64,000 bases of DNA, taken from Pseudomonadota bacterium (GTDB lineage: Bacteria > Pseudomonadota > Gammaproteobacteria > JAKAQQ01). Each line of letters starts with the position of its first letter. Position 1 is the first letter of the stretch. The notes under the pieces were generated by a model that saw only the letters and a program-made list of their open reading frames with translations, was not told where the DNA came from and ran no database searches. A program made the translations under genes and the position numbers. Of this stretch, positions 4,272 through 64,000 are shown piece after piece. Location of the stretch: contig JAJZIH010000011.1 in the NCBI GenBank assembly GCA_021810635.1, positions 1,422 to 65,421 on the forward strand, given 5' to 3'.

Positions 4272-6202
4272 GCGAAATCCTGTGGAGCCCGGGGCCGGCC
4301 GAGCGGGCCCGAAGCGCGCTCGCCCGTTTCCAGAAAAACCTGAACCGGCGTGGCGAAGCCGTCGGGGACGACTACGGCACCCTCTGGCAATGGTCGATCG
4401 ATCATCCGGAACGCTTCTGGCCGGCGGTGGCGGACTTTTTCCGGGTCCGGTTCGAAGGCCGGGCCCAAGCCGTCCTCGGGGGACCCATGCCCGAGACCCG
4501 CTGGTTTGAGGGGGTGCGGCTCAACTATGCACGGCACCTGGTCGAGACGCCGCGCCCCGGAGGACTGGCGCTCATCTTCCGCAACGAGGAGGGGGCGCGG
4601 AGCACGCTGACCGATGGCGGGCTCCGGGACGCCGTGGCCGCCCTCGCCTCCGATTTCAGGGCCGCCGGGGTCGGGCCGGGCGACCGGGTGGCCGCCTACC
4701 TTCCGAATCATCCGGCGGCGCTCGTGACGATGCTCGCCTCCTCGAGCCTCGGCGCGGTGTTCACGAGCGCTTCACCCGATTTCGGCGTCGACGGGGTCCT
4801 GGACCGCTTTGGCCAGGTGGCCCCCAAGGTCCTGGTGGCCGTCGACGGTTACCCCTATGCCGGGGTGCGCTATGACGTCCGGGGACGGGTCCGGTCCATC
4901 GCCGCGCGCCTGCCCACGCTGGTCCGCACGGTCGTGGTGCCGTACCTCATGGCGGGGGCCGATCTTTCGGGGCTTCCCAACGCCGTCGCCTATCCCGATC
5001 TCCTGAAACGATCGCCCGGAACTCTCCCGTACGCCGATCTCCCCTTCGACCACCCTCTCTATATCCTCTATTCCTCCGGGACGACCGGCCAACCCAAGTG
5101 CATGATCCACCGGCAGGGAGGAGTGCTCCTCCAGCATCTCAAGGAAGTGGGGCTTCATACCGACGTGGGGGCGGGCGATCGCCTGTTCTATTTCACGACC
5201 ACGGGCTGGATGATGTGGAACTGGATGGCGAGCGCCCTCGCCCTCGGTGCGACCCTTCTGCTCTATGACGGCTCCCCCGTCCATCCCCGCACGGACGCCC
5301 TTCTCGACCTGATCGACGAGGAGGAGATCGGAACCTTCGGGACGAGTGCCCGTTTCCTCCGGACCCTGGAAAAAAGCCGCGTGAAACGTCGTGCCGATGG
5401 GGATCTGGCTCGTCTCCGGACGATTCTTTCGACGGGATCTCCGCTCCTCGCCGACCAGTTCGACTATGTCTACCGCGATCTCAAGCCGGATGTCCGGCTG
5501 AACTCGATCTCCGGCGGGACCGATATCGTCTCCTGCTTCGTCCTGGGAACCCCGACGCTGCCCATCCGCCGTGGCGAGATCCAGTGCCGCGGACTCGGCA
5601 TGGCGGTCGAGGTTGACGACCCCTCGGGCCGCCCCGTCGTGGGCGAACGGGGCGAGCTCGTCTGCACGCGTCCGTTCCCGACCCTCCCGCTCGGGTTCTG
5701 GAACGATCCGGAGGGGGAGCGCTACCGGGCCGCCTATTTCGCGCGCTTTCCCGGCATCTGGTGCCATGGGGATTTTGCCGCGCTCACCGCCCAGGGAGGA
5801 GTGGTCATTTACGGTCGCTCCGACACCGTCCTCAATCCCGGCGGCGTGCGCATCGGCACTGCCGAAATCTACCGGCAGGTCGAGGCGTTCGACGAGATTG
5901 CGGAAGCCGTGGTCGTGGGAGAACCCGACGGGGAAGGTTCCGAACGGATCCTGTTGTTCGTCGTCCTCAGGCCGGGTGCCGCCCTCGACGAGGAGCTTGC
6001 GCGGCGCATCCGCGAGCGGATCCGCTCTGCGCTCACGTCCCGGCACGTGCCGGCCCGCATCCTGGCCGTTCCGGACATCCCCCGAACGAGGAGCGGAAAG
6101 ATCAGCGAGATGGCCGTGCGCCAAGTGGTTTGCGGGGAGGAGGTGACCAACACGGGTGCGTTGGCCAACCCGGAATCCCTCGAGGCCTTCCGCAACCGGT
6201 AG
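4268..6202 (+). CDS. Acetoacetyl-CoA synthetase (acetoacetate-CoA ligase)
   Basis: TTG start overlapping the etfA stop. AMP-binding motif YILYSSGTTGQPKCM. C-terminal PRTRSGKISE. Length of 644 aa and an LW.P N-terminus typical of AACS. Confidence 0.85.
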   Translation: MSEILWSPGPAERARSALARFQKNLNRRGEAVGDDYGTLWQWSIDHPERFWPAVADFFRVRFEGRAQAVLGGPMPETRWFEGVRLNYARHLVETPRPGGLALIFRNEEGARSTLTDGGLRDAVAALASDFRAAGVGPGDRVAAYLPNHPAALVTMLASSSLGAVFTSASPDFGVDGVLDRFGQVAPKVLVAVDGYPYAGVRYDVRGRVRSIAARLPTLVRTVVVPYLMAGADLSGLPNAVAYPDLLKRSPGTLPYADLPFDHPLYILYSSGTTGQPKCMIHRQGGVLLQHLKEVGLHTDVGAGDRLFYFTTTGWMMWNWMASALALGATLLLYDGSPVHPRTDALLDLIDEEEIGTFGTSARFLRTLEKSRVKRRADGDLARLRTILSTGSPLLADQFDYVYRDLKPDVRLNSISGGTDIVSCFVLGTPTLPIRRGEIQCRGLGMAVEVDDPSGRPVVGERGELVCTRPFPTLPLGFWNDPEGERYRAAYFARFPGIWCHGDFAALTAQGGVVIYGRSDTVLNPGGVRIGTAEIYRQVEAFDEIAEAVVVGEPDGEGSERILLFVVLRPGAALDEELARRIRERIRSALTSRHVPARILAVPDIPRTRSGKISEMAVRQVVCGEEVTNTGALANPESLEAFRNR

Positions 6203-6301: not shown

Positions 6302-8377
6302 TCAATGCGCAACTTTCGTTTTCCGAGGTGGCCGGGTCACGGCGAAAGGAGACGACCGCCGGGGGTGGGGGGAGGCGGTTGTCCGGGTTTTCCCCGAAGG
6401 GGGTTTCCGGGCGGAGCGGATTTTCGCCGCCAGCGCATGGATGTCCGGGCCCAGCCGGCCCATCCAGTTCATGGATTTGAGCAGGGCGAGATCGCGGCGG
6501 GCGGCTTTCACGTTGCCCATGGCGAGATCGATCGAAGCCAGGTTGATCCGGTACTGGGGAACCCCGGGGTTGAGGTGGGCGGCCTCGGCATTGAGCCGGC
6601 GGATCGGGGCCAGGGGCAGGTGGTCATCGAACCTCCAGTTGCCGTCCAGGACGAGCAGGTTCCCTTTGATGAAGGGGAGCCGGTCGATTCGCGGACTGTC
6701 GAGTGCGGCCTGGAACAGGGCCTTCATCCAGGGAGGGGGGAGATGACAGTGGTGGTTGGTTTCGCAGATGACGATCCCCTGGAGCGCTTCGAGGTCGCTC
6801 ACCGTGAGCACCCGGGACCGGAGTTTCGCCTCCATCGTGGAAAACCAGCGGGCTTCGGTCGGGTGCCCGGTTTCCTGGCTCAGGATCACCTTGGCGGCAT
6901 CGGGCAGGAGATCGGCGTTGGGCAGCCGGCCCGCCCGGTCGAGGGCGACCACGGCGGCCGGATAGAGCTTGGCATCGCCACCGATCGTGAGGTCGCTCAG
7001 TTCCTCTCCGAGGAAATAGGCCGCTCTCGGCGAATGCGGGTGGAATACCGCCTGGTCGATCGCCAGGGTGATGTTGTTGCGCCAAGCCCAGGCCCACTGG
7101 GCGGTCACGGAAGCGTAGAAGGCAATCAGCAGGACGGACACGGCCCTCCGTGCGATTCGGTGACGGCCGCGCGGTGCGGCCAGAAGGAGCAGCGAGAAGA
7201 CGACGAGGACGAGCCCCCAGTCCGCCAGGTAGTTGCGCTGCTCGAAGACGAGCTCGAGGGGGAAGATCGTCGATTCCATGAGCTGGCCGGCAAAGAACCA
7301 GCCGATGCCGAGGGCGGCGAGCGGGTTTTTCCGGCGCAGGAGAAAGGCCAGGACGAGCAGGAGCGCGAGAGCGAGGGCGGACAAGAAGGTCGAGGGCGGG
7401 GTGAGCCAGCCCGAGGATGGGGTCAGGTGGTGAAAAACCGTAAAGTCGGCCAGCGAGGGCAGAAGCGCCCAACCGATATAGTGGAGAACCACGCGGTTTT
7501 CGCTGAGCAGCCGCTCTGCGAGGGTGAAGGGCCGGCCGGCATAGCTCAAAAGACCGGTTTCGTACGTCCAGGCGAGTCCGGCGAGTCCGGGCAGGACGAG
7601 GAAGCCGAGATAGAAGAAGAGGATCCCCCGGCTCGTTCGCCCCGACGGGTCCTTGAAACGAAACAGCAGGGCCTCGAGGAGGAGGGTATAGACGGGAAGC
7701 AGGGCGCCGGATTCCTTGGACAGGGTCGCGAGCACGAGGAAGGCGGCAAAACCGGCGACCAGTCGCCCCCCGCCGCCGCCGCGTTCGAGCTGGCGTTCGC
7801 GGGCGCTGATGTAGAACCAGGCGCCTGCAATCGTGAAAGCAGCTGCCAGGGCCGCTTCGCGCTGGACGACATAGAGCACGGAGGTGAGGTTGAGCGGCAG
7901 GAGGAGCCAGGCGGCCACCACGGCCAGAGCCGTGTAGTCGATCTCGCAATCCGTCCAGTCGGTGGACCAGCGCCTCCGTCCGATTCTGAGGAGCTTCCGG
8001 GTGAATCCGAGCAGCAGGAGCCCGTTGACGAGCTCGAGTGCGAGGTTGGTGATCTTGAAGGAAAGGGGCCCCTGTCCGAAAAACGTCCGGTCGAGCGCAA
8101 AGGTGAGCATGCTGATCGGACGGCGAAGCGGCCCGGCATCGAAGGAGAAAGCCGCATGCATGACCGCCCCGTAACTCCAGGGGTGGATGAAAAGTGCCGG
8201 GTTCTGGACGATGTTCGTGAGGTCGTCCAGAACCCAGCCGCCGGAAAGTCCCGGCGCGTAGACCAGAGCCGTAAGACCGAAGGCCAGAAACGCGAGGATT
8301 CCCCAGAGATGGCGGCGGATGGCCACGGTCCAGAGGCGGGCTCCCCCGGCAACGGTCGGGACGGAGGGCCGTCTCAC
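6302..8377 (-). CDS. Polytopic GT-C type (PMT/TMTC-like) glycosyltransferase-family membrane protein with C-terminal TPR region
   Basis: 691 aa with about 10 or more hydrophobic segments. An acidic loop motif, GGWVLDDLTNIV, follows TM1, as in PMT/TMTC-type GT-C enzymes. The soluble C-terminal ~250 aa have TPR-like helical repeats. The GTG start overlaps the stop of the upstream methyltransferase gene (GTGA). Confidence 0.6.
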   Translation of the reverse strand: MRRPSVPTVAGGARLWTVAIRRHLWGILAFLAFGLTALVYAPGLSGGWVLDDLTNIVQNPALFIHPWSYGAVMHAAFSFDAGPLRRPISMLTFALDRTFFGQGPLSFKITNLALELVNGLLLLGFTRKLLRIGRRRWSTDWTDCEIDYTALAVVAAWLLLPLNLTSVLYVVQREAALAAAFTIAGAWFYISARERQLERGGGGGRLVAGFAAFLVLATLSKESGALLPVYTLLLEALLFRFKDPSGRTSRGILFFYLGFLVLPGLAGLAWTYETGLLSYAGRPFTLAERLLSENRVVLHYIGWALLPSLADFTVFHHLTPSSGWLTPPSTFLSALALALLLVLAFLLRRKNPLAALGIGWFFAGQLMESTIFPLELVFEQRNYLADWGLVLVVFSLLLLAAPRGRHRIARRAVSVLLIAFYASVTAQWAWAWRNNITLAIDQAVFHPHSPRAAYFLGEELSDLTIGGDAKLYPAAVVALDRAGRLPNADLLPDAAKVILSQETGHPTEARWFSTMEAKLRSRVLTVSDLEALQGIVICETNHHCHLPPPWMKALFQAALDSPRIDRLPFIKGNLLVLDGNWRFDDHLPLAPIRRLNAEAAHLNPGVPQYRINLASIDLAMGNVKAARRDLALLKSMNWMGRLGPDIHALAAKIRSARKPPSGKTRTTASPHPRRSSPFAVTRPPRKTKVAH

Positions 8378-9182: not shown

Positions 9183-9647
9183 TCAGGTGCCTGTGCAACT
9201 CCTCGGCATCAGCGACTGGGAGATGGTGGTGCTGCTGCAGGTCCAGATCATCGGGGCACCCGGGGAGGCCATGCTCATGATGAACTGGACGCTGTTGCCT
9301 GCGAGTCCCGCATTGACGCCGGTAGTCTTGAAAGCCGCAGTGATCGTGCAGCCGCCGAGAGAAGATGCTGTGCCGGCGTCATCCACCGACGCGACGTATT
9401 TTCCAACGATCAAATCGGCTGCCGGAAAACCGGTCGTCGTGCCGCTGATCGGGCAGGTGTCGTTCTGCATGTAATAGTTCGCGACCGGAATCTTCTGGCC
9501 GCTGATCAGCGAAATCGCCTCCGTGAACTGGGCTTTCGCAATGTAGTTCTCATAGGCCGGGATCGCAATGGCGGCCAAGATGCCGATGATCGCGACCACG
9601 ATCATGAGTTCGATCAGGGTGAACCCCTTTTGACGATTCGTTTTCAT
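9183..9647 (-). CDS. pilA: Type IVa major pilin (prepilin)
   Basis: Class III leader and N-methylation site [33 protein letters not shown]-terminal disulfide loop [19 protein letters not shown] Shine-Dalgarno about 10 nt upstream of the ATG at 9647. Confidence 0.9.
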
Positions 9648-9736
9648 AGCTTGATACCTCGTAGATGAACGATGGACTGGTTCCTCGTCGCGGCCCCAAG
9701 CCATTACGCGAAGGAAGTTCCGCAATAGGTAGACCT

Positions 9737-9751
9737 GCAGGATGCATGCCA
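9737..9751 (-). promoter_or_regulatory. Sigma54 (-24/-12) promoter of the downstream pilin gene
   Basis: The minus strand reads TGGCATGCATCCTGC (GG-N10-GC; consensus TGGCAC-N5-TTGC), about 90 nt upstream of the ATG. PilR-dependent pilin genes classically use sigma54. Confidence 0.65.
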
Positions 9752-9839
9752 GACTGGATCCCCATTCCTTCCGGGCCGCCGAATCCAGCCCGAACGCGGA
9801 TCCCGTGAAGGGTCGATCGTCCAGGTCCCGGATCTAAAG

Positions 9840-9895
9840 TGACACTTAGTGTCAGTAGGTGACATTTTTCGTCACTTGCTGACCCAAATTGTCAG
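9840..9895. promoter_or_regulatory. Three phased palindromic sites TGAC-N7-GTCA; candidate PilR enhancer (UAS)
   Basis: Sites at 9840-9854 TGACacttagtGTCA, 9860-9874 TGACatttttcGTCA and 9880-9894 TGACccaaattGTCA. Centres are at 9847/9867/9887, exactly 20 bp apart. They lie 90-145 bp upstream of the sigma54 promoter at 9737-9751. Each contains TGTC/GACA cores as reported for P. aeruginosa PilR sites. Confidence 0.55.
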
Positions 9896-10332
9896 GAACC
9901 ATTGCATGACTGGGGGAGGAGGGTCGGATCGATGGTCGAGCTGCTGCAGATCCACCGGATCGCCCCGCCAAAGCCTGTGGATTTGGGCGCGAGGCTGAGC
10001 GTTTTCCCGGACAGCCCGGGCACGACTCCGTGAGTTTTGAAGACCGCCTGGATGACCCCGTCCTTGACCCCGACTTGGGCCACATAACGGCCGGCCAGGC
10101 TGGCCGGCTCCGGAATTCCGTTCTCGCCCGAGGTGATGCCGACGAAACTGCCGTTGCTCCACCAGAGCGAGGCGATCGTCGGCTTGAGGCCGCCCGCGAT
10201 CGAAAGCGCTTCCGTCGCCTCCGCCCGGGCGATGTCGCTTTCGTAGGCCGGGATCGCGATGGTCGCGAGAACTCCCACGATCAGGATCACGATCATGAGT
10301 TCGATCAGGGTGAATCCGCGGTTTGGGCGCAT
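9892..10332 (-). CDS. Type IVa pilin paralogue (prepilin)
   Basis: Leader [31 protein letters not shown]-terminal disulfide loop [15 protein letters not shown]. 146 aa. Confidence 0.9.
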
Positions 10333-21514: not shown

Positions 21515-22152
21515 AGCACGTCGGCCTCTTCGGCGGCTCATTCGATCCCGTGCACGTCGGCCATCTGCGGGCGGCGCTCGAGGCCGCGGAACACGTGGGC
21601 CTGGACGAGCTGCGCTTCGTTCCCTGTGCCGTCTCGCCCGGGAAACCCCGGCCACACGCGTCCGGCAGTCTCCGGCGGGAATGGCTTCGCCAAGCGATCG
21701 GAGATCGGCCGGGCTGGCAGGTGGACGACCGGGAATTGCGCCGGGGGGGCGTGAGCTATACGGTCGAGACCCTGGCCGAAATCCGGGAGACCGAGCCGGA
21801 CGCGCGCCTGTACTGGATGGTCGGCTCGGATGCCTTTTGCGGGCTGCATGGGTGGCGGGAGGCGGATCGCCTGGGCCGGCTCGCGCACTGGATCGTCCTT
21901 CTCAGGCCCGGGTTCGAAGACCGCCTCCCCCCCCCACAGGCACCCGACTGGTGCCGGAGCGGGACGACGGACGATCCGGCAAAACTGAGGCGGGATCCGG
22001 CCGGAGGCGTCCTTTATCTGCCGGTCACTCCGCTCGGCATCTCCGCCACGGCGGTCCGCGCCCGGATCCGCCGGGGACAGCGCCTCGATTACCTCGTTCC
22101 CGAACCGATCCGGGGCACCCTCGAGCGGGCGGATTGCTATGACCCGCCCTAA
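21511..22152 (+). CDS. nadD: Nicotinate-nucleotide adenylyltransferase
   Basis: The GTG start overlaps the holA TGA. Motif GLFGGSFDPVHVGH (HxGH). Confidence 0.9.
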   Translation: MKHVGLFGGSFDPVHVGHLRAALEAAEHVGLDELRFVPCAVSPGKPRPHASGSLRREWLRQAIGDRPGWQVDDRELRRGGVSYTVETLAEIRETEPDARLYWMVGSDAFCGLHGWREADRLGRLAHWIVLLRPGFEDRLPPPQAPDWCRSGTTDDPAKLRRDPAGGVLYLPVTPLGISATAVRARIRRGQRLDYLVPEPIRGTLERADCYDPP

Positions 22153-22477
22153 AACCTCCTGGCCCCCGGATCCGTGGCTGGACTCGCTCGAGCAGGTCAT
22201 CCGGGACCACCACGGATACGAAATCGTGCGGCTGGATGTCCGGGGACTCACAACCTTGGCCGACCACTTCGTGATCGCGAGCGGAACTTCGGATCGCCAG
22301 CTCCGGACCCTCGCCGCACGGGTCCGCGAGGCGGCCCAGGGGGCTGGGCGACCCATTGTCGGCAGCGAAGGGGAACCCACCGGCGGCTGGGTTCTGGTCG
22401 ATCTCGACGACGTGATCGTCCATCTCATGCTGCCCGATCTCAGGCGGTTCTACCAACTCGAAAAACTGTGGAGCTAG
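22139..22477 (+). CDS. rsfS: Ribosomal silencing factor RsfS
   Basis: DHFVIASGTS...WVLVDLDDVIVHLM...YQLEKLWS. The C-terminus matches the native E. coli RsfS end (ELEKLWS, recalled). Confidence 0.9.
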   Translation: MTRPKTSWPPDPWLDSLEQVIRDHHGYEIVRLDVRGLTTLADHFVIASGTSDRQLRTLAARVREAAQGAGRPIVGSEGEPTGGWVLVDLDDVIVHLMLPDLRRFYQLEKLWS

Positions 22478-23607
22478 TAGAGAGACCCACCAAAGTATTT
22501 ACACTTCAATCCGGATCCCGCACATTTCGGCCAGACCCCACTCGTCAACCCCGGAGGGCGCCATGGCCGACAAGACCCAGAGGACTCCATTGGTTCTGAA
22601 CGATCGGGAAAGACAGAAGATCCAGGGCATTGCCCAATCCCGCACGGCCCTGCTCCGGGACGTGCAACGGGCGAAGATTCTTTTGGCCTATGCCGACCGC
22701 GTTTCGCTGTCCAGCATTGCGATGCCAACCGGAACGACCCGTCCCACGGTGTACAAGTGCATCGACAAAGCCTTGTCCATGGGCTGGGAGGCGGGACTCA
22801 GGGACCTTTTTCACCGTCCGAAAGAACCGACAATGACTCCGGAAGCCAAGGCCTGGGCGGTCTCTTTGGGGGCTTGCAGCCGAGCTCTGGACCCACCAGG
22901 CCCTGGCCCACTACATCCGGACCCATTCCACGGGGGGGAAGCGGGCCACCCGTCCCTGTCCCGGCCGGGTGGCCAAGTGCACCGTCCAGAGGATTCTGGA
23001 CGAACAGGAACTGAAACCCCATCAGGTCCGGTATTACCTTGAACGCTGCGGTCCGGAGTTCGACCGGAAGATGCGGGAGGTTCTCATGGTCTACCGCGAG
23101 GTGTCCCTCGCCCCACCCGGAGGAGATCGGGAGGTCTACACCGTGAGCGTCGACGAGAAGCCGGGGGTCCAGGCCCCGGGAGTCACGGCTCCCGATCGGT
23201 CTCCGGTCCCCGGAACACATCCGGCCGTTTCCCGGGACCCTGAAGATGTCCGGATGGGAACGCTTTCCATTCTGGCCGCCCTGGATCTCCATGACGGCCA
23301 AGTCATCGCCCAGGTCCACGAGCGCCACCGGAGCCGGGAGTTCGTCGAACTCTTGAAGGAACTGGATCGCCATTATCCTCCGGAAGCCCAGATCCGGGTG
23401 ATCCTGGACAACCGCTCCGCCCATGTCTCCCAGGAGACCCGGGCCTTTCTTCGCCCTATCCGGGCGGGCAGCCTGGCGGAGCTCAAGGAACGGATTCTTG
23501 AAGGGGTTCAGGAGATCAACGAGAACCCCGTCGTTCGCCGCTGGAAAATTCCGAAGCCATCGAATCGGATGCTAAAGTGCAACTATTTTAGTGGGTCTTT
23601 CTACGAG
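22474..23607 (+). mobile_element. IS630-family insertion sequence, copy 1 (defective)
   Basis: Imperfect terminal inverted repeats CTAGTAGAGAGACCCACCAAAGTATTTACACTT / CTCGTAGAAAGACCCACTAAAATAGTTGCACTT (right end reverse-complemented). Encodes IS630-type HTH and DDE segments. Boundaries are good to within a few nt. Confidence 0.8.
22563..23607 (+). pseudogene. IS630-family transposase, disrupted by frame changes and an internal deletion
   Basis: Homologous segments alternate between two frames: AKAWAVSLG (A), ELWTHQALAHYIRTHS (B), EAGHPSLSR (A), VAKCTVQRILDE...DEKPGVQA...ILDNRSAHVSQETRAFL (B). The stretch normally between AFL and LRxIR (HGSWLN..E, bearing the catalytic Glu) is missing. There is no stop codon before the IS end. 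Confidence 0.7.
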
Positions 23608-23658
23608 TCTCACCGCCGCCCGCGCCCCGCGAGAGGCCTTTTCATTAACCAACCTCCC

Positions 23659-24087
23659 TCAGCCCGGCACTGCGGGTGCCACCACTTGCTTCGATAGCGC
23701 CTGAAAGTTAACCGTTGGCAATAGATATGGCCCCCAGGGACCTCGACTAGTCACTATCAGTACCATTTCGCGCGCGGCTGAGTAGAGAATTGAGGTCCCA
23801 TTAATACGGAGAAGTTTCTCTTTGTCAGGGTTTGACGGCTCCAAAACGGAAAACTGTCCGACCACCTGGAATGCCACATCATAAGGAAGCGTTCCGGCCC
23901 CGTCAGGCGCCCGTAGGCTACTGATCTCGAGGGTCACACGGTACTTACTCTCAACGCCCTCCACAGGTTCCAGTCCCGCCTGAATTTGCACATTGACCCT
24001 CGGCGCAAGCGACTCCAGTTTGTGCTCGAAATTCGTTTCGACACGCAATTTGGAGAAGACATATTGGTCAAGTTGTAGTAGACCCAT
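23659..24087 (-). CDS. SecB-like chaperone (TAC-type)
   Basis: 142 aa. YRVTLEIS...FQVVGQFSV...NGTSILYSAAREMVLIVTSRGPWGPYLLPTVNFQAL parallels the E. coli SecB core ...YEVVLRVTV...QQGGIFSI...[35 protein letters not shown] (recalled). It starts 7 nt after the antitoxin stop. Confidence 0.75.
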   Translation of the reverse strand: MGLLQLDQYVFSKLRVETNFEHKLESLAPRVNVQIQAGLEPVEGVESKYRVTLEISSLRAPDGAGTLPYDVAFQVVGQFSVLEPSNPDKEKLLRINGTSILYSAAREMVLIVTSRGPWGPYLLPTVNFQALSKQVVAPAVPG

Positions 24088-24094
24088 AAAGAAA

Positions 24095-24625
24095 TTAACC
24101 GTTCAGGACGTTTGGTAGATCATTAAGGTTAGTTGTCTCCATGCGTACATTTTGATTTCGTTTCGGAAATGGAACAATGGAGGCGTGCTGCGGCGTAGAA
24201 ATAGTTGCCTCAATCATGATCTCCTTCTGCCAGTTCCCCATTTCACTACCCACTAAACGCTCGAGTGTCAGCAACTCTTCACTAAAACTCGCCGCTTCTA
24301 GGCCCTGCGGAGTTTTGTCGGCGATCTCAGTAAAGAACTTGGTAAATGGCACCAATTTCACCAATAGAGCGACGTCGAATGCGTTCGCCAACTCTGTGAG
24401 GGTTTTTACGCTCAGGCGCCCATAATCAGGGTCCTCTAGTCGGGACACGGCGTTCTGCCCCTTCCTGAGCCTCCGACCCAGCTCTTCCTGGGTCCAGTGG
24501 CGCTGTTCTCGGAGCGCGCGAATCTGATAAGCAATGCCGGTAGTGACCTCTGCGGTCACATACGCGTCTCGATATTTTTTGCTTTGAAATTTTGCCAACA
24601 GCTTGTCTCTAAAAGACCCAATCAT
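24095..24625 (-). CDS. XRE-family HTH antitoxin (HigA-like) with long C-terminal extension
   Basis: HTH core IRALREQRHWTQEELGRRLRKGQNAVSRLEDPDYGRLSVKTLTELANAFDVALLVKL, resembling M. tuberculosis HigA1. A tail of about 75-80 aa follows the HTH. GGAGGGAG Shine-Dalgarno upstream. It overlaps the toxin gene by 17 nt. Confidence 0.8.
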   Translation of the reverse strand: MIGSFRDKLLAKFQSKKYRDAYVTAEVTTGIAYQIRALREQRHWTQEELGRRLRKGQNAVSRLEDPDYGRLSVKTLTELANAFDVALLVKLVPFTKFFTEIADKTPQGLEAASFSEELLTLERLVGSEMGNWQKEIMIEATISTPQHASIVPFPKRNQNVRMETTNLNDLPNVLNG

Positions 24626-25013
24626 TGGCGCTCCCTCCGGTCGGGTTAGGTTGAGTTCGGTGTGCGTTTAATGCAGACATGTATTTCAGCGCAGATGCGC
24701 AAGCACTTGGCGGTTGGAGTTGGTCACCTCTCTCAATAGCCCCAACCAATAACGTAAATTGATTCGGCCCCGGTCCAAAAAAGCCTAATGGCCGATATTG
24801 TATCTTCTTCGCTTTGAAGCGTATCTCACCGAGACCAGCACATGGTCCATGCAAAAGACTGAAATGAGGCCTCGACCACCCATTCCGGGGCTGCTGTTTC
24901 AAATACAACAATCTGGCATCAAAAACAGCTCTCACGTCTTCGCCCAGGTTGTCGTACCAGTTCTTAAAAGAACTCTCACCATTGGCGGCCACGTAATACT
25001 TAATGATCCACAT
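24609..25013 (-). CDS. HigB/Gp49-like RelE-superfamily toxin
   Basis: 134 aa. MWIIKYYVAANGESSFKNWYDNL...LGEIRFKAKKIQYRPLGFFGPGPNQFTLLVGAIERG fits the Gp49/HigB pattern (W..F...G.. / ELR....YR.L.FF......LL..F.K). It is the first gene of the three-gene operon. Confidence 0.7.
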   Translation of the reverse strand: MWIIKYYVAANGESSFKNWYDNLGEDVRAVFDARLLYLKQQPRNGWSRPHFSLLHGPCAGLGEIRFKAKKIQYRPLGFFGPGPNQFTLLVGAIERGDQLQPPSACASALKYMSALNAHRTQPNPTGGSANDWVF

Positions 25014-25034
25014 TGTATATCATAATCTTGTGAT

Positions 25035-25049
25035 ACGGCAAAGTGCCGT
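25035..25049. promoter_or_regulatory. Palindrome ACGGCA-N3-TGCCGT upstream of the toxin gene; candidate antitoxin operator
   Basis: Perfect 6-bp arms, 22-36 nt upstream of the toxin ATG (25013), next to AT-rich TATGATATA sequence. Confidence 0.3.
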
Positions 25050-25169
25050 CCGTCGGAGGAGGTTGGGGCGCGTACACCTAATCAGCAGAGAGATCAGAAG
25101 CCCTGTCTGCCTGGCGCTAAACAGGCGTGACCCAGCATAAATGTTTCTGATGCCTGCTTCAACCGGGTT

Positions 25170-26303
25170 CTAGTAGAGAGACCCACCAAAGTATTTACAC
25201 TTCAATCCGGATCCCGCACATTTCGGCCAGACCCCACTCGTCAACCCCGGAGGGCGCCATGGCCGACAAGACCCAGAGGACTCCATTGGTTCTGAACGAT
25301 CGGGAAAGACAGAAGATCCAGGGCATTGCCCAATCCCGCACGGCCCTGCTCCGGGACGTGCAACGGGCGAAGATTCTTTTGGCCTATGCCGACCGCGTTT
25401 CGCTGTCCAGCATTGCGATGCCAACCGGAACGACCCGTCCCACGGTGTACAAGTGCATCGACAAAGCCTTGTCCATGGGCTGGGAGGCGGGACTCAGGGA
25501 CCTTTTTCACCGTCCGAAAGAACCGACAATGACTCCGGAAGCCAAGGCCTGGGCGGTCTCTTTGGGGGCTTGCAGCCGAGCTCTGGACCCACCAGGCCCT
25601 GGCCCACTACATCCGGACCCATTCCACGGGGGGGAAGCGGGCCACCCGTCCCTGTCCCGGCCGGGTGGCCAAGTGCACCGTCCAGAGGATTCTGGACGAA
25701 CAGGAACTGAAACCCCATCAGGTCCGGTATTACCTTGAACGCTGCGGTCCGGAGTTCGACCGGAAGATGCGGGAGGTTCTCATGGTCTACCGCGAGGTGT
25801 CCCTCGCCCCACCCGGAGGAGATCGGGAGGTCTACACCGTGAGCGTCGACGAGAAGCCGGGGGTCCAGGCCCCGGGAGTCACGGCTCCCGATCGGTCTCC
25901 GGTCCCCGGAACACATCCGGCCGTTTCCCGGGACCCTGAAGATGTCCGGATGGGAACGCTTTCCATTCTGGCCGCCCTGGATCTCCATGACGGCCAAGTC
26001 ATCGCCCAGGTCCACGAGCGCCACCGGAGCCGGGAGTTCGTCGAACTCTTGAAGGAACTGGATCGCCATTATCCTCCGGAAGCCCAGATCCGGGTGATCC
26101 TGGACAACCGCTCCGCCCATGTCTCCCAGGAGACCCGGGCCTTTCTTCGCCCTATCCGGGCGGGCAGCCTGGCGGAGCTCAAGGAACGGATTCTTGAAGG
26201 GGTTCAGGAGATCAACGAGAACCCCGTCGTTCGCCGCTGGAAAATTCCGAAGCCATCGAATCGGATGCTAAAGTGCAACTATTTTAGTGGGTCTTTCTAC
26301 GAG
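25170..26303 (+). mobile_element. IS630-family insertion sequence, copy 2 (defective, identical to copy 1)
   Basis: Offset of exactly 2,696 bp from copy 1. All six-frame ORFs within it are identical to those of copy 1. Confidence 0.8.
25259..26303 (+). pseudogene. IS630-family transposase pseudogene (same lesions as copy 1)
   Basis: Translations are identical to copy 1. The reading frame runs out of the element into flanking DNA (25665..26477 ORF). Confidence 0.7.
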
Positions 26304-26304
26304 A

Positions 26305-26332
26305 CCGGGTCGGCCAGAGGAATCCGACCCGG
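26305..26332. repeat. Perfect 9-bp-stem hairpin immediately right of IS copy 2
   Basis: CCGGGTCGG (26305-26313), a 10-nt loop, then CCGACCCGG (26324-26332). No T tract follows. Confidence 0.4.
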
Positions 26333-26476
26333 CCGCTGGATGAGTCCGTCCCCGTTCCCGGCCGCCGGGGAGGGACGTTCGGCTGGGGGCCTCGCCCAGT
26401 GTGCGACAATCTCCCGGTCAGCCGGTCTGAAAGCGGATCCGGCATTTTTGGTTTCCCGAGCGAGAGCCTTGGACTA

Positions 26477-29400
26477 ATGGACTCAACGCCTGTGCGCCCC
26501 CGCCGCCTCTGGGTTCGTGTTCCGGCGGGACTCGTGGCCGTGCTGGTCATCGGGGCGGCGGCCGGGGTGGGCCTGTTTCGCCTGGCCGCCCTGACCGTCC
26601 CGGCGTACCGTCACGAGGTCGAGCAGTGGGCTTCCCGCACCGTCGGCGTGCCGTTGACGATCCGCGGCATCGAAGCGCGCTGGAGCGGCTTGGGCCCCGA
26701 ACTCGTTCTGGATTCCGTGGTCTTGAAGGCTCCGCACCGCCGGACCCCCCTGGCCGGGGCCAGCCAGATCGTGGTGCATCTGTCGATTCCGGTCATGATC
26801 GAGAACGGACGGTTGCTGCCGAGCGGCGTGACCATCCGCGGACTCCGTTTGACGGTCCGGCAAAACGCGGCCGGGCACTGGCAGATGCCCTGGGCGAAGC
26901 CCGGCGAACCCCATTCCTTTCCGTTTGCGACGCTCCTCGCGGTCAGTGCGCACGATGCCCGCCTGCAGTTCCGTGACGCCGTGATCCGGCTGATTCCGTC
27001 CGCCACCCGCCCACCGACCCTTCTTCAAGTCTCCCGCTTCCGGATTGCGGTCCGGGCCGACCAGTACCGCATGATGCTCAGCATGCGGGCTGAGCCCCAT
27101 CTGGTCCGGATGCTTGACCTCCGGGTGCGAGCGCAGGGCTCCCGAACGGACCCCGGTCTCTGGCACTGGCGCGTCCGGGGCGAGGTTCTGGATCTCGCCC
27201 CGGCGGCCCTGGTCCCGCTGGGCCTGGTCCTGCCGGTCCAGGGACTGGACGGGAGCCGGTTGTCGGTCACGCTGGCAGGCGCGGGAATGGGGCGACACCC
27301 CGCCCGCCTCCATGGATCATTGACGGCAATGTGGCCCGACCGGGGCTCCCGGCCAGGCCCCCTTCATCCGGGTCGGGTCCGAATCCAGGGGGGATTCCGG
27401 GTCAACTGGATCAAAAGGCGGGCCGTTCTGTCCCCGATCGTCGTGGCGCGGCCCGGGCATCCGGCCCGTCGCGAGGACCTCGAGATCGGCTGGTCTGGGG
27501 CCGTGGGGGGCCGGGTGGGCTACCGGATCGGGGCCCAGCGGTTTTTCCTGGGCACGCTCTTGCCGTTCGTGCCGTTGGCCGGACCGTCCACCGCACTCCG
27601 CCCGATGGCGAACCTCTTGGGCCGCTTGCGCCCCACTGGCCGGGTGGTCGGGCTGGATGTCCGCCTCGGGCTCACCCCGAACGGATGGGACGTACGTTCG
27701 GCCACGGGACGGTTTGAACGGGTGGGCTGGTCGGCCTGGAGAGGCTGGCCCGGATTCGGGGGATTTTCAGGACATTTCGCCGCGACGGGCCGAAACGGAT
27801 CCGTCTTCCTCAGGCCTTCGACCGTCACGTTCCGCGATCCCGGGATCTTCAGCCGGCCGATCACCCTCACCTGGGGAGGGACCGTACTGTCGTATGAGGC
27901 CCGTCCCAAGGGCCTTTTGGCCCTCACCCCGACCTGGATCCGCTCCCCTGGGTTCGCGGTCGCGGTTCACCAGGCGACCCTCCGTCTGCCGTCCGGAGTC
28001 GGCCGGTCCCCGACAATCCGGCTGGATGCCCGTCTCCGGAACGGCCGCGTGCCGCTCATGGCCGGGGACATCCCCTACGGAATCTTCGGGCCGGGGCTGC
28101 GCCGATGGCTCCACCGGGCGTTGGTCGCGGGCTGGATCCCCGAGGCCCACCTGGTCCTCGACGGGAAACTTTCGGACTTCCCGTTTTCGCATGGGGGCGG
28201 GCGGTTCGAGGTCCGCTTCGCCCTCCGGAAGGCGGAGGTGCATATCGCCTCCGGCTGGCCCGATCTCGTGGTCGATCGGGCAGAGGGGGTTTTCGCCGGA
28301 CCGGGGTTCTCCGTGCGGATCGCGACCGGGATGGAAGCCGGTTTCCCGCTGGCCGGATCCGGCCTCGTGATTCCACACCTCAAGCGGGGCGTCTTGCATA
28401 TCCGGGGCGCCTTTGCGGGCCAGGCCGCAACCCTTGAAAGCTATCTCGATTCGACGCCCCTGTCACGACGCTGGAACGGACTGTTCACCGCTCTCGATCT
28501 CACCGGCCCGCTCGCGGCTTCGGTCCGGATCCGCCTCCCGGTCCATGCACTGGACCGGCCGACGATCCGGGGGCACGTCCGGTTTATCCGGGATCGCTTC
28601 CGCTTTCGGCCCTGGCCCCTCGTGCTCCATCGTCTCAAAGGAGACGTCACCTTCGACAACCTGGCCGTGACGGCTCCGACCCTGACCGCCCGGCTCAATG
28701 GGCACCGACTCACTTTCAATGCGTGGAGGAAGCGGAAGGAAACCCATCTCCAGATGGTGGGAGCCCTGGATGTGGCGAAGCTTGGGTTGCCCGCCCCCTT
28801 GGCCCGGCTCGTTCAAGGGGCTTCCGACTGGCAAGCCGAGCTCGCCTATGCCCCCGCGCATCTGACCGGCCGGCTGCGGTTCAAGGTTCTGACCCACCTC
28901 GTGGGCACGCGCCTCCTTCTGCCAGCTCCGCTGGCCAAGGCCGCCGCCCGGTCCATGACCCTGGATTTGACCGGCGCGCTGGTGCAGGGGGACTCGCGTT
29001 TCCGCATCGCGGGGACCTGGAAGTCGATCGGTTGGATGGGAGTCCGGGGGCGGTTCGTCGATGGCCGGCCGGTCCTGTCCGCCGGCCGGATCGATTTTGG
29101 AGGCCGTCTTGCACCCCTTCCGGCCCACGGGATTCTGGTCACGGGGGGTGTTGGGGAGACCGATCTGTCCGGATGGTGGCGCCTGTACCGGCAGATCCGG
29201 CTTCCAGGGTCGGGCTCTCCCTCCGTCCGGATCAAGGACTTGCATCTCGCCCGCCTGACCGGCTGGGGACAGAAGCTCGGCCCTCTCCTCCTGTCGGTCG
29301 CGGCGGCAACCCGGACCGGGTTTCATTTCCAGGTGGACGGGACGGATCTCGCCGGGACCGGCTTTTTTCCGCCCGCCGGCAGCCACCGCCCGGTCCAGCT

Positions 29401-30322
29401 GCACTTCAGCCGTTTTGAAATCGCGCCACTCGTCCACCTGGCGGGATCCGGCACGAGTCATCTCACGCCGGAGGTCCTGCCGGCCCTGGACTGGTCCAGC
29501 ACGCAAACCCGTTACGGGCGGATTGTGCTCGGCAACGTCATTTTTGACTGGACCCATCCTTCCCCCCACGCTCTCCGCTGTTCCCATGTCGCCCTGGTTT
29601 CGCCCGATCTCCGGATCACCGGGGGCGGGCAATGGGTCTGGAATCGTTCGGGATCCCGCGTTGACCTCAACGCCAAGGTCACGAGCCCGAAGGTCGGTTC
29701 GGCCTTCCGCCAGCTTGACATCAAGCGGATCCTGACGGGTCAGCAGGCCGGGGTTGCCCTGAACCTGGACTGGCGGGGAACTCCCTGGCACCCCGACCGG
29801 ACTTCGCTTGGGGGCACCATCCGGTTTTCCGTCCGGGATGGCCGGGTCCTCGCCATCAAGCCCGGTGGTGCCGGACGCTTCCTCGCGCTCCTCAGTCTGA
29901 ATGCATTGCCGCGCCGGCTCGGCCTGGACTTCAGCGACGTCTTCTCCCGCGGGCTCAGCTATGACCGCCTGCAGGGGATGTTCACCATCCGGCGAGGAGT
30001 GGCCGTGACCCATGACGCCACGCTTTTCGGTTCCTCGATTGCCATCTGGCTCACCGGAAAAACCGATCTCGCCAAACGGAGTTATGATCAGGTGGCACTC
30101 GTCATCCCCCATGTGGGATCCACCCTGCCGATCGCGGGGGCCATTTTCGGTGGCCCGATCGGGGGGGGGATCCTCCTCGCGCTGTCCCGGATCTTCCGGG
30201 GAGTGATCGAAAGCATGAGCGAAACCTACTATCACGTCACGGGACCCTGGCGGGACCCGCGCGTCCACCGGATCAGCGCGGCCCGGGCGCGGGCGCTCGG
30301 CTTCGTGAAGAAGCCCGGGTAG
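26477..30322 (+). CDS. yhdP: YhdP-family (AsmA-like, DUF3971) large envelope protein
   Basis: 1,281 aa. One N-terminal TM segment (LVAVLVIGAAAGVGLF), then a long beta-rich body. C-terminal YYHVTGPWRDPRV signature typical of YhdP. The internal start MDSTPV was chosen. Confidence 0.8.
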   Translation: MDSTPVRPRRLWVRVPAGLVAVLVIGAAAGVGLFRLAALTVPAYRHEVEQWASRTVGVPLTIRGIEARWSGLGPELVLDSVVLKAPHRRTPLAGASQIVVHLSIPVMIENGRLLPSGVTIRGLRLTVRQNAAGHWQMPWAKPGEPHSFPFATLLAVSAHDARLQFRDAVIRLIPSATRPPTLLQVSRFRIAVRADQYRMMLSMRAEPHLVRMLDLRVRAQGSRTDPGLWHWRVRGEVLDLAPAALVPLGLVLPVQGLDGSRLSVTLAGAGMGRHPARLHGSLTAMWPDRGSRPGPLHPGRVRIQGGFRVNWIKRRAVLSPIVVARPGHPARREDLEIGWSGAVGGRVGYRIGAQRFFLGTLLPFVPLAGPSTALRPMANLLGRLRPTGRVVGLDVRLGLTPNGWDVRSATGRFERVGWSAWRGWPGFGGFSGHFAATGRNGSVFLRPSTVTFRDPGIFSRPITLTWGGTVLSYEARPKGLLALTPTWIRSPGFAVAVHQATLRLPSGVGRSPTIRLDARLRNGRVPLMAGDIPYGIFGPGLRRWLHRALVAGWIPEAHLVLDGKLSDFPFSHGGGRFEVRFALRKAEVHIASGWPDLVVDRAEGVFAGPGFSVRIATGMEAGFPLAGSGLVIPHLKRGVLHIRGAFAGQAATLESYLDSTPLSRRWNGLFTALDLTGPLAASVRIRLPVHALDRPTIRGHVRFIRDRFRFRPWPLVLHRLKGDVTFDNLAVTAPTLTARLNGHRLTFNAWRKRKETHLQMVGALDVAKLGLPAPLARLVQGASDWQAELAYAPAHLTGRLRFKVLTHLVGTRLLLPAPLAKAAARSMTLDLTGALVQGDSRFRIAGTWKSIGWMGVRGRFVDGRPVLSAGRIDFGGRLAPLPAHGILVTGGVGETDLSGWWRLYRQIRLPGSGSPSVRIKDLHLARLTGWGQKLGPLLLSVAAATRTGFHFQVDGTDLAGTGFFPPAGSHRPVQLHFSRFEIAPLVHLAGSGTSHLTPEVLPALDWSSTQTRYGRIVLGNVIFDWTHPSPHALRCSHVALVSPDLRITGGGQWVWNRSGSRVDLNAKVTSPKVGSAFRQLDIKRILTGQQAGVALNLDWRGTPWHPDRTSLGGTIRFSVRDGRVLAIKPGGAGRFLALLSLNALPRRLGLDFSDVFSRGLSYDRLQGMFTIRRGVAVTHDATLFGSSIAIWLTGKTDLAKRSYDQVALVIPHVGSTLPIAGAIFGGPIGGGILLALSRIFRGVIESMSETYYHVTGPWRDPRVHRISAARARALGFVKKPG

Positions 30323-62465: not shown

Positions 62466-62888
62466 TCACGGCGTCGGCCTGAGAGACGATTCGAGACGGG
62501 CCCGGGTTTCTTCGAGGAGATCCGGACGGCGGACGGCGACGAACACGGTATCGTCGCCGGCCAGTGAGCCGGCCACGCCCTCCAGCTTGAGCTGGTCGAT
62601 TTTAAGTCCCAGGGCCTGTGCGAATCCCGGCGCGGTGCGGATCACGAGGAGGTTGGGAGGAGACAGTTCCACCTCGAAGGGGAGGGGATTGGTATTGCGC
62701 AGCGGCTCGAAATGGGCATAGCGGCCACGGACCTTGCGGATGGAGAGCCGGGCCAACCGCCGCGACAGCGTGGGCTGGGTCAGGCTGATCCCGTGTTCTT
62801 GCAGGCGGGCCCGTATGGTTTCCTGGTCCGGGATCGTCTCTTCCATGACCAAGGCAAGGAGGACTTCGTCTGTTTTTTCGCTGATCAT
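62466..62888 (-). CDS. argR: Arginine repressor
   Basis: Winged-helix region QETIRARLQEHGISLTQPTLSRRLARLSIRKV and C-terminal oligomerisation motif GSLAGDDTVFV. Divergent from argD across an AT-rich region with ARG-box-like repeats. Confidence 0.85.
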   Translation of the reverse strand: MISEKTDEVLLALVMEETIPDQETIRARLQEHGISLTQPTLSRRLARLSIRKVRGRYAHFEPLRNTNPLPFEVELSPPNLLVIRTAPGFAQALGLKIDQLKLEGVAGSLAGDDTVFVAVRRPDLLEETRARLESSLRPTP

Positions 62889-63031
62889 GAATGAATTTTA
62901 CATTAGATGAATATCAGAAGGCAAAATATTGAGATATAGCGAATCTAAATCCTAGGGAAATAAGCTTGACATATCGATATTGAATGAATATTATAGGGTC
63001 TTGACCCATTTTTATGTGAATAATATTATGC
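62887..63031. promoter_or_regulatory. AT-rich argR/argD control region with three ARG-box-like TGAAT(G/A)AAT-rich repeats
   Basis: TGAATGAATTTTACATT (62888), TGAATGAATATTATAG (62981) and TGAATAATATTATG (63016). The E. coli ARG-box consensus is TNTGAATWWWWATTCANW. Confidence 0.5.
62966..62994 (+). promoter_or_regulatory. Sigma70-type promoter for argD (TTGACA-N17-TATTAT)
   Basis: TTGACA at 62966-62971, a 17-nt spacer, then TATTAT at 62989-62994. The spacer and -10 element overlap the second ARG-box-like repeat. Confidence 0.5.
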
Positions 63032-64000
63032 CTTCCGATTTATCCCCGCATTTGCTGGGACAGGGGCCGCTCTGGCCGATCGAAATCGTCCGGGGCCGCA
63101 ACGACCGGGTTTGGGATGCCGCCGGCCGGATGTTCTATGACTTCTATGGGGGTCATGCCGTGGCCCTCACGGGCCATGCCCACCCCCATATCCGGAAGGC
63201 CATCGGGCGGGAGATGCGGAAGCTCATTTTTTACTCCACCTCCACCCGACTGGAGGTCCGGGAGCGGGCCGCAGCCGCTCTCGCCGCGCGTCTCCCGTCC
63301 CGCCTCGGGCAGGTGTTTTTCAGCAACTCTGGAGCGGAAGCCAACGACAATGCCCTGAAGATTGCGCTCAAGGTGACGGGAAGAGGGCGTCTCATCGCGT
63401 TCCGGGGTTCTTTCCACGGACGGACCGCGCTCACCCTCTCGGTGACCGACGATGCCCGGCTCAATGCACCCTTTGCCCGATTTGCCCCGCAGGTCGACTG
63501 GCTCCCGTTCGCCGGTGACGCCGGATGGGATCGGGTCGATTTTCGTGAGTCCGCCGCCGTGATCCTGGAACCCATCCAGTCGATGGGAGGGGTCCATGTC
63601 GCCCCGGACGCCTGGCTCGGGGAACTCATCCAGCGCGCCCATGCGGCCGGGTGCCTCGTCATTTTTGACGAAATCCAGACCGGGCTCGGGAGAACGGGCA
63701 CTTGGTTCTGCGCCGGCGCGCCCGGACTCGCTCCGGACCTCGTGACCATGGCCAAGGGGCTGGCCTCCGGGATCCCGGTTGCCGCGACGGCCGTCACCCC
63801 GGAGATTGCCTCGGCACTGGACCCCCACGATCTCGGCAGCACCTTCGGGGGGGGGCCGGTTGCCATGGCGGCCCTGCTTGCGACCTTCGAGGTGCTGGAG
63901 CGGGAAAACTGTCTCTCCGCGGTCCGGCAGCTCAGCCAGAAACTGGTGACCGCCATCAACCGGCTGCCCGGGTGCACCGCGCTGGGACGCGGGTTTCTCC
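63028..64000 (+). CDS. argD: Acetylornithine aminotransferase (class III PLP aminotransferase), 3' end outside the window
   Basis: Own translation gives MPSDLSPHLLGQGPLWPIEIVRGRNDRVWDAAGRMFYDFYGGHAV...SNSGAEANDNALKIA...FDEIQTGLGRTG...TMAKGLASG (PLP Lys). The frame stays open to the window end. It is absent from the ORF track because it has no stop codon. Confidence 0.8.
   Translation, partial: MPSDLSPHLLGQGPLWPIEIVRGRNDRVWDAAGRMFYDFYGGHAVALTGHAHPHIRKAIGREMRKLIFYSTSTRLEVRERAAAALAARLPSRLGQVFFSNSGAEANDNALKIALKVTGRGRLIAFRGSFHGRTALTLSVTDDARLNAPFARFAPQVDWLPFAGDAGWDRVDFRESAAVILEPIQSMGGVHVAPDAWLGELIQRAHAAGCLVIFDEIQTGLGRTGTWFCAGAPGLAPDLVTMAKGLASGIPVAATAVTPEIASALDPHDLGSTFGGGPVAMAALLATFEVLERENCLSAVRQLSQKLVTAINRLPGCTALGRGFL

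Follow-up and report, generated by a model that had tools for sequence, protein, structure and literature searches.

Results

Organisation of the locus

We analysed a 64,000-nucleotide stretch of DNA (the window) from the genome assembly of a Pseudomonadota bacterium (GCA_021810635.1, contig JAJZIH010000011.1, positions 1,422 to 65,421), which contains a three-gene module of the toxin-antitoxin-chaperone (TAC) type enclosed by two copies of an insertion sequence (IS). The three genes of the module are tightly coupled and run in the same direction on the minus strand; they encode a HigB-like toxin, a HigA-like antitoxin of the XRE helix-turn-helix (HTH) type and a SecB-like chaperone. Coordinates of all features are collected in Table 1.

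The toxin and antitoxin genes overlap by 17 nt (24609-24625). The antitoxin gene has its own Shine-Dalgarno (SD) sequence, GGAGGGAG, separated by 5 nt from its ATG (24625). The chaperone gene follows the antitoxin stop codon at a distance of 7 nt and has no SD sequence, which suggests that its translation is coupled to that of the antitoxin. The three open reading frames (ORFs), their sizes, the overlap, the SD sequence and the gap matched exactly what had been described in an earlier inspection of the bare sequence (hereafter the sequence-only reading). Two domain assignments made there were also borne out by Pfam: HTH_3 (PF01381) matched residues 35-87 of the antitoxin with 37.6 bits (cutoff 23), and SecB (PF02556) matched the 142-aa third protein with 38.4 bits (gathering cutoff 26).

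The DNA between the two IS copies (23608-25169, 1,562 bp) had a GC content of 51.5%, compared with 66.3% in the rest of the window. The single genes ranged from 49 to 53%, and the module constituted by far the deepest GC trough of the window. The AT-richness stressed in the sequence-only reading was thus real, whereas its statement that the module was the sole obviously foreign DNA has to be corrected: the two identical IS630-family copies that bracket the module (61.6% GC) had gone unreported.

The toxin

The toxin family comprised 1,348 clusters at 50% identity in an exhaustive profile search. Gp49 (PF05973) matched 33 of the 53 aligned toxin relatives at E<=0.01, the best of them at E=3.7e-10, and at the related loci L022, L033 and L034 a Gp49 match of the toxin is on record. 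The AlphaFold 2 (AF2) model of the toxin (pLDDT 92, pTM 0.87) predicted a RelE-like fold with an antiparallel sheet and flanking helices. A Foldseek search of the PDB with this model returned as its top match HigB1 (Rv1955) of Mycobacterium tuberculosis (Mtb) on the ribosome (7nbu_Y, E=3.9e-4, TM 0.62/0.68), followed by Vibrio cholerae HigB2, RelE and YoeB; all of the top 23 PDB matches were toxins of the HigB1/HigB2/RelE/YoeB type. Searches with the single sequence were not informative. In the PDB the best match was only an ATP-synthase epsilon chain at E=1.7, so that profiles were needed, and no NCBIfam or PADLOC model caught the toxin.

In the profile alignment, toxin residues E63, R65 and R74 corresponded, with the same spacing, to E66, R68 and R77 of HigB1, and N73 of HigB1 aligned to K70. 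In HigB1 the residues E66, R68 and R77 line the catalytic pocket, and the R68A and R77A exchanges abolish toxicity (PMC9098466). The near-invariant residues of the toxin family (W19, L38, W46, L54, R65, R74, G77 and A108), which include both arginines, were all present.

The antitoxin and its tail

More than 180 antitoxin homologues could be aligned over the first ~118 residues; length and sequence diverged thereafter. The sequence-only reading had counted about 75-80 residues after the HTH and placed the chaperone-addiction (ChAD) segment there. We found 89 residues after the HTH_3 match, of which ~31 (88-118) belonged to the conserved core and ~58 (119-176) to the variable tail. The HigA-type antitoxin carries a C-terminal extension that is missing from two-component homologues. 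Tail-less homologues of 118 and 130 aa adjoined neither a toxin nor a SecB gene, and some tailed homologues were paired with a third gene other than SecB.

The tail evolved faster than the core (ratio of non-synonymous to synonymous substitution rates, dN/dS, 0.24 vs 0.07) and was still constrained. Within the SecB-linked clade, a patch AS[IV]xPFP with the aromatic residue F153 was conserved, and a C-terminal LPNV[VL]NG (residues 170-176, here LPNVLNG) persisted. Several other antitoxin relatives ended in -AA, which resembles the ClpXP degrons found in Mtb HigA1 and in CmdA. From these sequence features, residues 119-176 represent a candidate ChAD, a class of segments known to be non-conserved (PMC5105189).

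The SecB-like chaperone

A profile of the chaperone family matched the SecB structures of Haemophilus influenzae (E=5.5e-4) and Escherichia coli (E=0.044) in the PDB, where a search with the single sequence recovered SecB at E=0.26 only. Alignment with E. coli SecB by hhalign gave E=7.6e-5 over residues 45-132. The SecB-like C-terminal motif quoted in the sequence-only reading was present in the third protein, and the E. coli motif given there agreed with PDB SecB in the alignments.

The six NCBIfam equivalogs for housekeeping secB all matched below their cutoffs (103-277), the best with 36.2 bits vs 143. Residue A72 aligned to E77 of E. coli SecB, which belongs to the acidic cluster that binds SecA. 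The part of E. coli SecB that bears D20 and E24 found no alignment, and the N-terminal 44 residues of the chaperone remained unaligned. By both the equivalog scores and the acidic cluster, the protein falls outside the housekeeping export SecBs. The same cluster (D20/E24/E77 in E. coli SecB) is also altered in Mtb SecB-TA (PMC6377645).

Relatives of the chaperone were few. Its lineage consisted of only ~10 clusters, from metagenomes of the Acidiferrobacter/Acidithiobacillus type, and the phage collection contained none. PADLOC gave a weak match (E=2.8e-5) to PD-T4-9_C, the SecB-like component of the anti-phage system PD-T4-9, which we take to be the system later named CmdTAC. Among 72,556 plasmids, the only relatives were SecB genes located directly after MqsA-type antitoxins, one of them beside DISARM and another beside IS elements. 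Together, the PD-T4-9_C match and the MqsA-linked plasmid relatives show, as far as sequence relationships go, that the chaperone belongs to a toxin-antitoxin (TA)-associated SecB radiation. Its closest annotated plasmid relative lies on the Thiodictyon plasmid pTs485 (L036, 1807-5414), as a pair of an MqsA-type antitoxin and SecB with drmA of DISARM directly downstream and an ISAs1 transposase upstream, a defence-island setting. A tblastn search of the 64 kb of the window alone, with a partly verified E. coli SecB query, detected no further secB.

Conservation of the triad in related loci

The toxin-antitoxin-chaperone triad recurred with the same overlaps at 66-91% chaperone identity. In loci L003, L004 and L009-L012, it adjoined genes for a TrwC relaxase, a TrwB coupling protein and an integrase; in L005-L008, it was situated within another gene cluster. 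At 48-51% chaperone identity, the triad contained a Gp49 toxin together with a different HTH antitoxin family. In L032 it adjoined a Mu-like transposase. The triad of L034 (856-3020) combined a chaperone of 48% identity with a Gp49 toxin and a short, -AA-terminated HTH antitoxin; it was located directly downstream of a divergent pair of cI-like (HTH and Peptidase_S24) and Cro genes, that is, in the 'moron' slot of a prophage immunity region. The arrangement was thus common to relatives in at least four contexts, and in every relative the third gene followed 5-7 nt after the antitoxin gene and had no SD sequence of its own.

Compared with three orthologous modules, dN/dS was 0.20-0.23 for the toxin, 0.08-0.11 for the antitoxin and 0.08 for the chaperone. 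Given these values (0.08-0.23), all three genes are selectively maintained, as judged from the sequence comparison. The three ORFs were intact, and they were identical across several independent metagenome samples.

Some observations on more distant relatives may be added. In L024 (3635-4324, Pelagibius marinus) and L022 (3512-3913), tailed antitoxin homologues retain the 17-nt overlap with a Gp49 toxin gene. A third gene is tightly coupled there as well; it is not SecB and has no Pfam match. The products of the two genes share the N-terminal motif LLS.F..DE..P......D.V.....RY.F...PE and may represent a different third partner of HigBA-like pairs. A tail-less relative of the antitoxin core (L019, 3001-3357, P0027; 75% identical) was assigned to the metagenome-assembled genome (MAG) of a Thermoplasmataceae archaeon, and the chaperones of L014 and L015 (82% and 66% identical) were assigned to a Sulfobacillus MAG. 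These assignments reflect either cross-phylum or cross-domain transfer in acid-mine communities or mis-binned contigs of mobile elements.

The flanking IS630 elements and the chromosomal site

The two IS copies are direct repeats, 100% identical over 1,134 bp, with an HTH region, a DDE_3 domain and the terminal inverted repeats GTAGAGAGACCCAC / GTAGAAAGACCCAC. On a metagenome contig of the same locus (L001), the transposase is a single ORF of 402 aa that matched the NCBIfam IS630 model NF033545 with 133.6 bits (cutoff 100). The transposase, the terminal repeats and the junctions at CTAG place both elements in the IS630 family. Relative to L001, both copies in the window contain indels of +1, +5 and +4 nt, which leave ORFs of 159 and 242/270 aa. 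The profile match of the L001 transposase itself stopped at position 246 of 299 (247-299 missing), and compared with plasmid IS630 transposases a gap of ~47 residues was found even in the version with an intact frame. On account of these gaps, the catalytic domain appears to be incomplete and the element non-autonomous.

The order of genes at the site is leuS-lptE-holA-nadD-rsfS, IS-TAC-IS and yhdP, with Pfam matches for RsfS, LptE, tRNA-synt_1 and CTP_transf_like in the left cluster. The first bases of the left IS copy (copy L) provide the TAG stop codon of rsfS. In many proteobacteria rsfS is followed by rlmH. Here rlmH was absent after rsfS, and the next gene past IS-TAC-IS was yhdP.

That the identical IS copies are an artefact of assembly was considered and rejected, because independent short-read contigs span all four junctions. 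The transition from rsfS into the left end of the IS was present in 7 independent metagenome contigs from different samples. Contig L002 corresponds to window positions 23467-25310 and includes both inner junctions, and L001 corresponds to 23619-27219, reaching from the module across the IS to yhdP.

The 156 bp 5' of the toxin gene and the 51 bp 3' of the chaperone gene are homologous to the version found on a conjugative element, up to the IS boundaries. At both inner boundaries, the uninterrupted homologue reads CTAG: CAA-CTAG-AACCCGG upstream and GTGAGA-CTAG-GGCAAC downstream. A CTAG is present at the outer left junction, too (GGAG-CTAG, at the rsfS stop). CTAG with duplication of TA is the classical target of IS630 elements, and the three junctions are consistent, as read from the sequence, with this preference. 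Both IS right ends read CTAC-GAG and not CTAC-TAG, and for this reason a clean TA duplication cannot be defined. A metagenome scan with the 3' end of rsfS returned neither an empty site GGAGCTAGACCGGG nor a filled one, and a lookup of identical RsfS proteins returned only filled sites, in contigs that ended inside the IS. A metagenome scan with the IS right end returned nothing.

Elsewhere in the window, milder dips in GC content were noted at 9401-10000 (56.5%) and 62601-63400 (54.5%) against a background of 66%. The latter overlaps a 140-aa minus-strand ORF (62466-62888).

The 5' control region

Comparison of homologous upstream regions revealed a conserved imperfect palindrome close to the toxin start; in L005 the palindrome (TATATCACAAATTTGTGATATA) is perfect. 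It became visible only through the homologues, as a search of the 5' region with the repeat finder yielded no inverted repeat. From these features and the promoter-like hexamers of Table 1, the region has a putative operator and promoter role. The toxin start codon has no SD sequence. TTGCCG-18-TACAAT was rejected as the sole promoter, since it overlaps the start codon and cannot alone explain translation from M1. A leaderless transcript from TATGAT (25019-25024) was also considered and found to be unsupported. The toxin transcript may be leaderless or start elsewhere. Searches for Rfam families and for tRNA genes found none.

Table 1. Features of the TAC module, its IS630-family flanks and the chromosomal insertion site (window coordinates unless a related locus is named)
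Feature	Position	Strand	Basis or remark
Toxin gene, higB-like	24609-25013	-	ORF, 134 aa, RelE/Gp49 superfamily
Antitoxin gene, higA-like XRE-HTH with C-terminal extension	24095-24625	-	ORF, 176 aa
SecB-like TA-associated chaperone gene	23659-24087	-	ORF, 142 aa
Antitoxin Shine-Dalgarno sequence GGAGGGAG	24631-24638	-	Sequence reading; within 3' end of toxin gene
Candidate ChAD tail	24098-24271	-	Antitoxin residues 119-176, variable region
AS[IV]xPFP patch with aromatic F153	24164-24184	-	Antitoxin residues 148-154, conserved within SecB-linked clade
IS630-family copy L, downstream side of module	22474-23607	+	1,134 bp
IS630-family copy R, upstream side of module	25170-26303	+	1,134 bp
IS junctions at CTAG	22474-22477, 23604-23610, 25167-25173; L009 ~4955-4965, ~6480-6490		Three of four junctions
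Conserved 5' control region	25014-25169	-	Homologous to upstream region of modules borne on integrative and conjugative elements (ICEs), up to IS boundary
Imperfect palindrome TATCACAAG/ATTATGATA	25018-25035	-	Comparison of homologous upstream regions
Promoter-like hexamers TTGCCG-18-TACAAT	25041-25012	-	Consensus scan; overlap toxin start codon, palindrome within spacer
rsfS, left flank	22139-22477	+	Pfam RsfS; last gene of leuS-lptE-holA-nadD-rsfS cluster
yhdP-like gene, right flank	26399-30322	+	1307 aa, Pfam YhdP E=1e-170

Discussion

We consider it probable that the locus is a HigB-type TAC operon and forms the cargo enclosed by two IS630-family elements, which are direct repeats and were inserted between rsfS and yhdP. 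The gene order and domain content of the Mtb TAC, which the sequence-only reading had invoked, stood up to analysis of sequence and predicted structure: the third protein has a SecB domain, the toxin a predicted HigB1-like fold and the XRE-HTH antitoxin a tail, and the triad travels together across mobile elements.

For toxicity, chaperone dependence, trigger and biological role, we infer a mechanism that is modelled on the Mtb TAC and E. coli HigBAC (PMC5105189, PMC6377645, PMC9098466, bioRxiv 10.1101/2024.02.24.581848). The 134-aa HigB1-like toxin would be a ribosome-dependent mRNA endonuclease. The 176-aa antitoxin would neutralise it and probably repress the operon at the palindrome by the toxin start. 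The ~58-residue tail would render the antitoxin unstable or prone to aggregation unless the co-translated SecB-like protein, as a tetramer, binds the tail. Titration of the chaperone, by phage structural proteins or by accumulated unfolded preproteins, or else removal of the cassette, would then set the toxin free and arrest translation. The likely role would be phage defence of the abortive-infection type and/or stabilisation of the carrier mobile DNA.

Several observations weigh against this interpretation. The toxin's own Gp49 score (18.6 bits) was below the gathering cutoff of 23.9. By this score alone the HigB/Gp49 label of the sequence-only reading was not secured, and the assignment needed the support of the toxin family and of the predicted structure, both of which it received. 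HigB1 K58 aligned to S52 (R in the closest relatives), and HigB1 K95 and K99 fall into a loop with a 4-residue insertion, in which R95 is a candidate; a clear basic equivalent of K58 and K95 is lacking. R95, in turn, replaces the loop lysine of the family consensus EKGG. Because of S52, R95 and the unclear equivalents of K58 and K95, the toxin may be of attenuated toxicity, as far as the alignment can tell. No similarity of the antitoxin tail to known ChADs could be detected, and the tail lacks the ClpXP-type degron (Ala-Ala or Val-Ala) with which Mtb HigA1, CmdA and several relatives end. For the chaperone monomer, the AF2 model, built from a 10-sequence alignment, was poor (pLDDT 43) and not usable, so that the SecB fold is derived from sequence profiles only. 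Finally, the consensus scan provided no convincing promoter upstream of the SD-less toxin start.

The peculiarities of the tail would also suit an ordinary HigBA pair that merely lies beside a SecB paralogue. In that case, the antitoxin would be independent of a chaperone, and the SecB-like protein would serve export or holdase duties of the element or the host. Dual chaperone roles do exist, since Mtb SecB-TA partly substitutes for E. coli SecB (PMC6377645), and it is the dependence on the chaperone that the mechanism above infers. However, the third gene was locked to the antitoxin gene in every relative by the short gap and the lack of an SD sequence, and the tail-less antitoxin homologues had no SecB gene beside them. 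The 36 bits of the chaperone are, moreover, far from the housekeeping cutoffs, the SecA-contacting acid E77 is missing, and its annotated relatives were all linked to antitoxins. We regard such an arrangement as improbable. Even less credit should be given to a decaying or attenuated relic, in which an inactive toxin is hitch-hiking cargo trapped between defective IS copies. Both copies have a broken transposase frame and miss ~47 residues of the catalytic domain, the closest relatives have R and K in place of S52 and R95, and neither an empty site nor recent movement was found. Against this stand three intact ORFs, identical in several independent metagenome samples, dN/dS values that stay between 0.08 and 0.23 and the complete set of near-invariant toxin residues.

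A TAC operon of the proposed kind might, in contrast, have addiction rather than phage defence as its main role, with the same machine stabilising a conjugative element in the relatives and the IS-IS segment here. We see this as a substantial possibility, somewhat short of an even chance. The relatives adjoin relaxase, coupling-protein and integrase genes, the module is flanked by direct IS repeats, recombination between which could otherwise delete the segment, and the rsfS-IS junction was fixed in 7/7 sampled contigs. On the other hand, one relative (L034) occupies a defence slot adjacent to cI in a prophage, plasmid relatives are neighbours of DISARM and E. coli TACs have been demonstrated to be anti-phage; nor are the two roles mutually exclusive.

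Concerning the carrier, the TAC operon is bracketed by two IS copies as in a composite transposon, and searches revealed neither a target-site duplication nor an empty site nor the unit at a second location. The CTAG tetranucleotides at which the inner junctions meet the conjugative-element homologue imply, in the simplest reading, that the two copies would have been inserted independently to the left and right of the TAC in a progenitor of the ICE type; the whole IS-TAC-IS unit would then have moved to the chromosome. A bolder version is in our view doubtful. In it, two IS insertions at CTAG would have captured the TAC from a conjugative element, and the resulting 3.8-kb IS630-TAC-IS630 unit, moved to the rsfS stop codon, would be an anti-phage cassette able to transpose and to stabilise itself. 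If true, it would make this the first TAC known as cargo of a composite transposon and only the second IS630-based composite described. In this version the tail may also follow a new logic of recognition and turnover, with the single AS[IV]xPFP patch and with the LPNV[VL]NG end replacing a degron of the Ala-Ala type.

TACs tie growth arrest to the protein-folding capacity of the cell, and recent work has shown that they sense structural proteins of phages. Any further divergent pair of chaperone and tail is a potential new sensor specificity. In the present acid-mine-type community, the same cassette is found on conjugative elements, in a prophage immunity region, next to a Mu-like element and between a chromosomal IS630 pair. 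As it occurs in several mobile settings, it is a compact example of defence and addiction modules shuffled between element types.

The sequence-only reading saw novelty in a proteobacterial TAC that presumably coexists with a housekeeping SecB and in the questions of specificity and crosstalk that this would raise. These matters have already been tested experimentally (PMC5105189, PMC4257090, bioRxiv 10.1101/2024.02.24.581848). About 7.5% of SecB sequences are TA-associated and located in horizontally transferred regions, and in several genomes a TA-linked SecB coexists with a solitary one (PMC4257090). For proteobacterial TACs of the HigBA, MqsRA and HicAB types, chaperone specificity and transfer of ChADs were tested (PMC5105189), and E. 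coli TACs are anti-phage systems that are triggered by phage proteins competing for the chaperone (bioRxiv 10.1101/2024.02.24.581848). Since chaperone specificity, coexistence with a housekeeping SecB and the addiction mechanism have been addressed in other TACs, the locus opens no new question.

Comparison with known systems

With the housekeeping SecB of E. coli and H. influenzae, the chaperone shares the Pfam domain and the conserved motif of the C-terminal core. It differs from them by scores below every NCBIfam secB cutoff, by its unaligned N-terminal 44 residues, by A72 in place of E77 and by the lack of a C-terminal helix or acidic tail. Its gene lies in a TA operon and not in a locus of the yibN-grxC-secB-gpsA type known from Enterobacteriaceae (bioRxiv 10.1101/2024.02.24.581848). 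CmdTAC/PD-T4-9 and the MqsRA TACs are related through the chaperone, which matches PD-T4-9_C weakly and has MqsA-SecB relatives on plasmids. Their toxins, an ADP-ribosyltransferase in the former and MqsR in the latter, and their antitoxins are of other families, whereas toxin and antitoxin are of the HigBA type here.

Like the TACs of E. coli NT1F31 (HigBAC) and Geobacter lovleyi (HigBA-TAC), the module is a proteobacterial HigB-HigA-SecB triad on mobile DNA. E. coli HigBAC is located downstream of cI/Cro in a lambdoid prophage (bioRxiv 10.1101/2024.02.24.581848), and the distant chaperone relative of L034 likewise lies just downstream of cI/Cro. In HigBAC-type TACs, aromatic residues of the disordered tail are the proposed handles for the chaperone, and the present tail has aromatic residues too. 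Compared by description, however, the ChAD reported for these TACs is longer (96 residues, with four aromatic short linear motifs ~30 residues apart) than the ~58-residue tail found here, which has one conserved aromatic patch (F153) and W132. The carrier is also different, an IS630 pair here and a prophage there.

With the Mtb TAC (HigB1 Rv1955, HigA1 Rv1956, SecB-TA Rv1957), the module has in common the order of genes, the HigB/Gp49-type toxin with the E/R/R residues of the pocket, the XRE-HTH antitoxin with a C-terminal extension, a chaperone with an altered SecA-binding acidic cluster and the location on horizontally acquired DNA. It departs from the Mtb system in its tail, which shows no detectable similarity and ends in LPNVLNG in place of a Val-Ala or Ala-Ala degron, and in a chaperone of 142 aa compared to roughly 180 aa (the mass of the Mtb protein is 20.4 kDa), for which sequence searches gave no match to the Mtb structure. 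The toxin is only ~18% identical to HigB1, and the host is a high-GC proteobacterium of an acidophile community, probably Acidiferrobacter-like.

As for the carrier, the closest parallel is Tn630-NC1 of Nitrosomonas communis, which was called the first IS630-based composite transposon in 2024 (PMC11544213). There, too, two IS630-family copies surround a short cargo with a type II TA system (BrnTA), and the IS is damaged by indels (PMC11544213). Unlike in Tn630-NC1, the cargo here is confined to a three-gene TAC (1,562 bp), the two IS copies point in the same direction and no clean duplication of the TA target could be defined. All in all, the locus is a divergent addition to the well-studied TAC family, of which only the IS630 carrier is mildly unusual.

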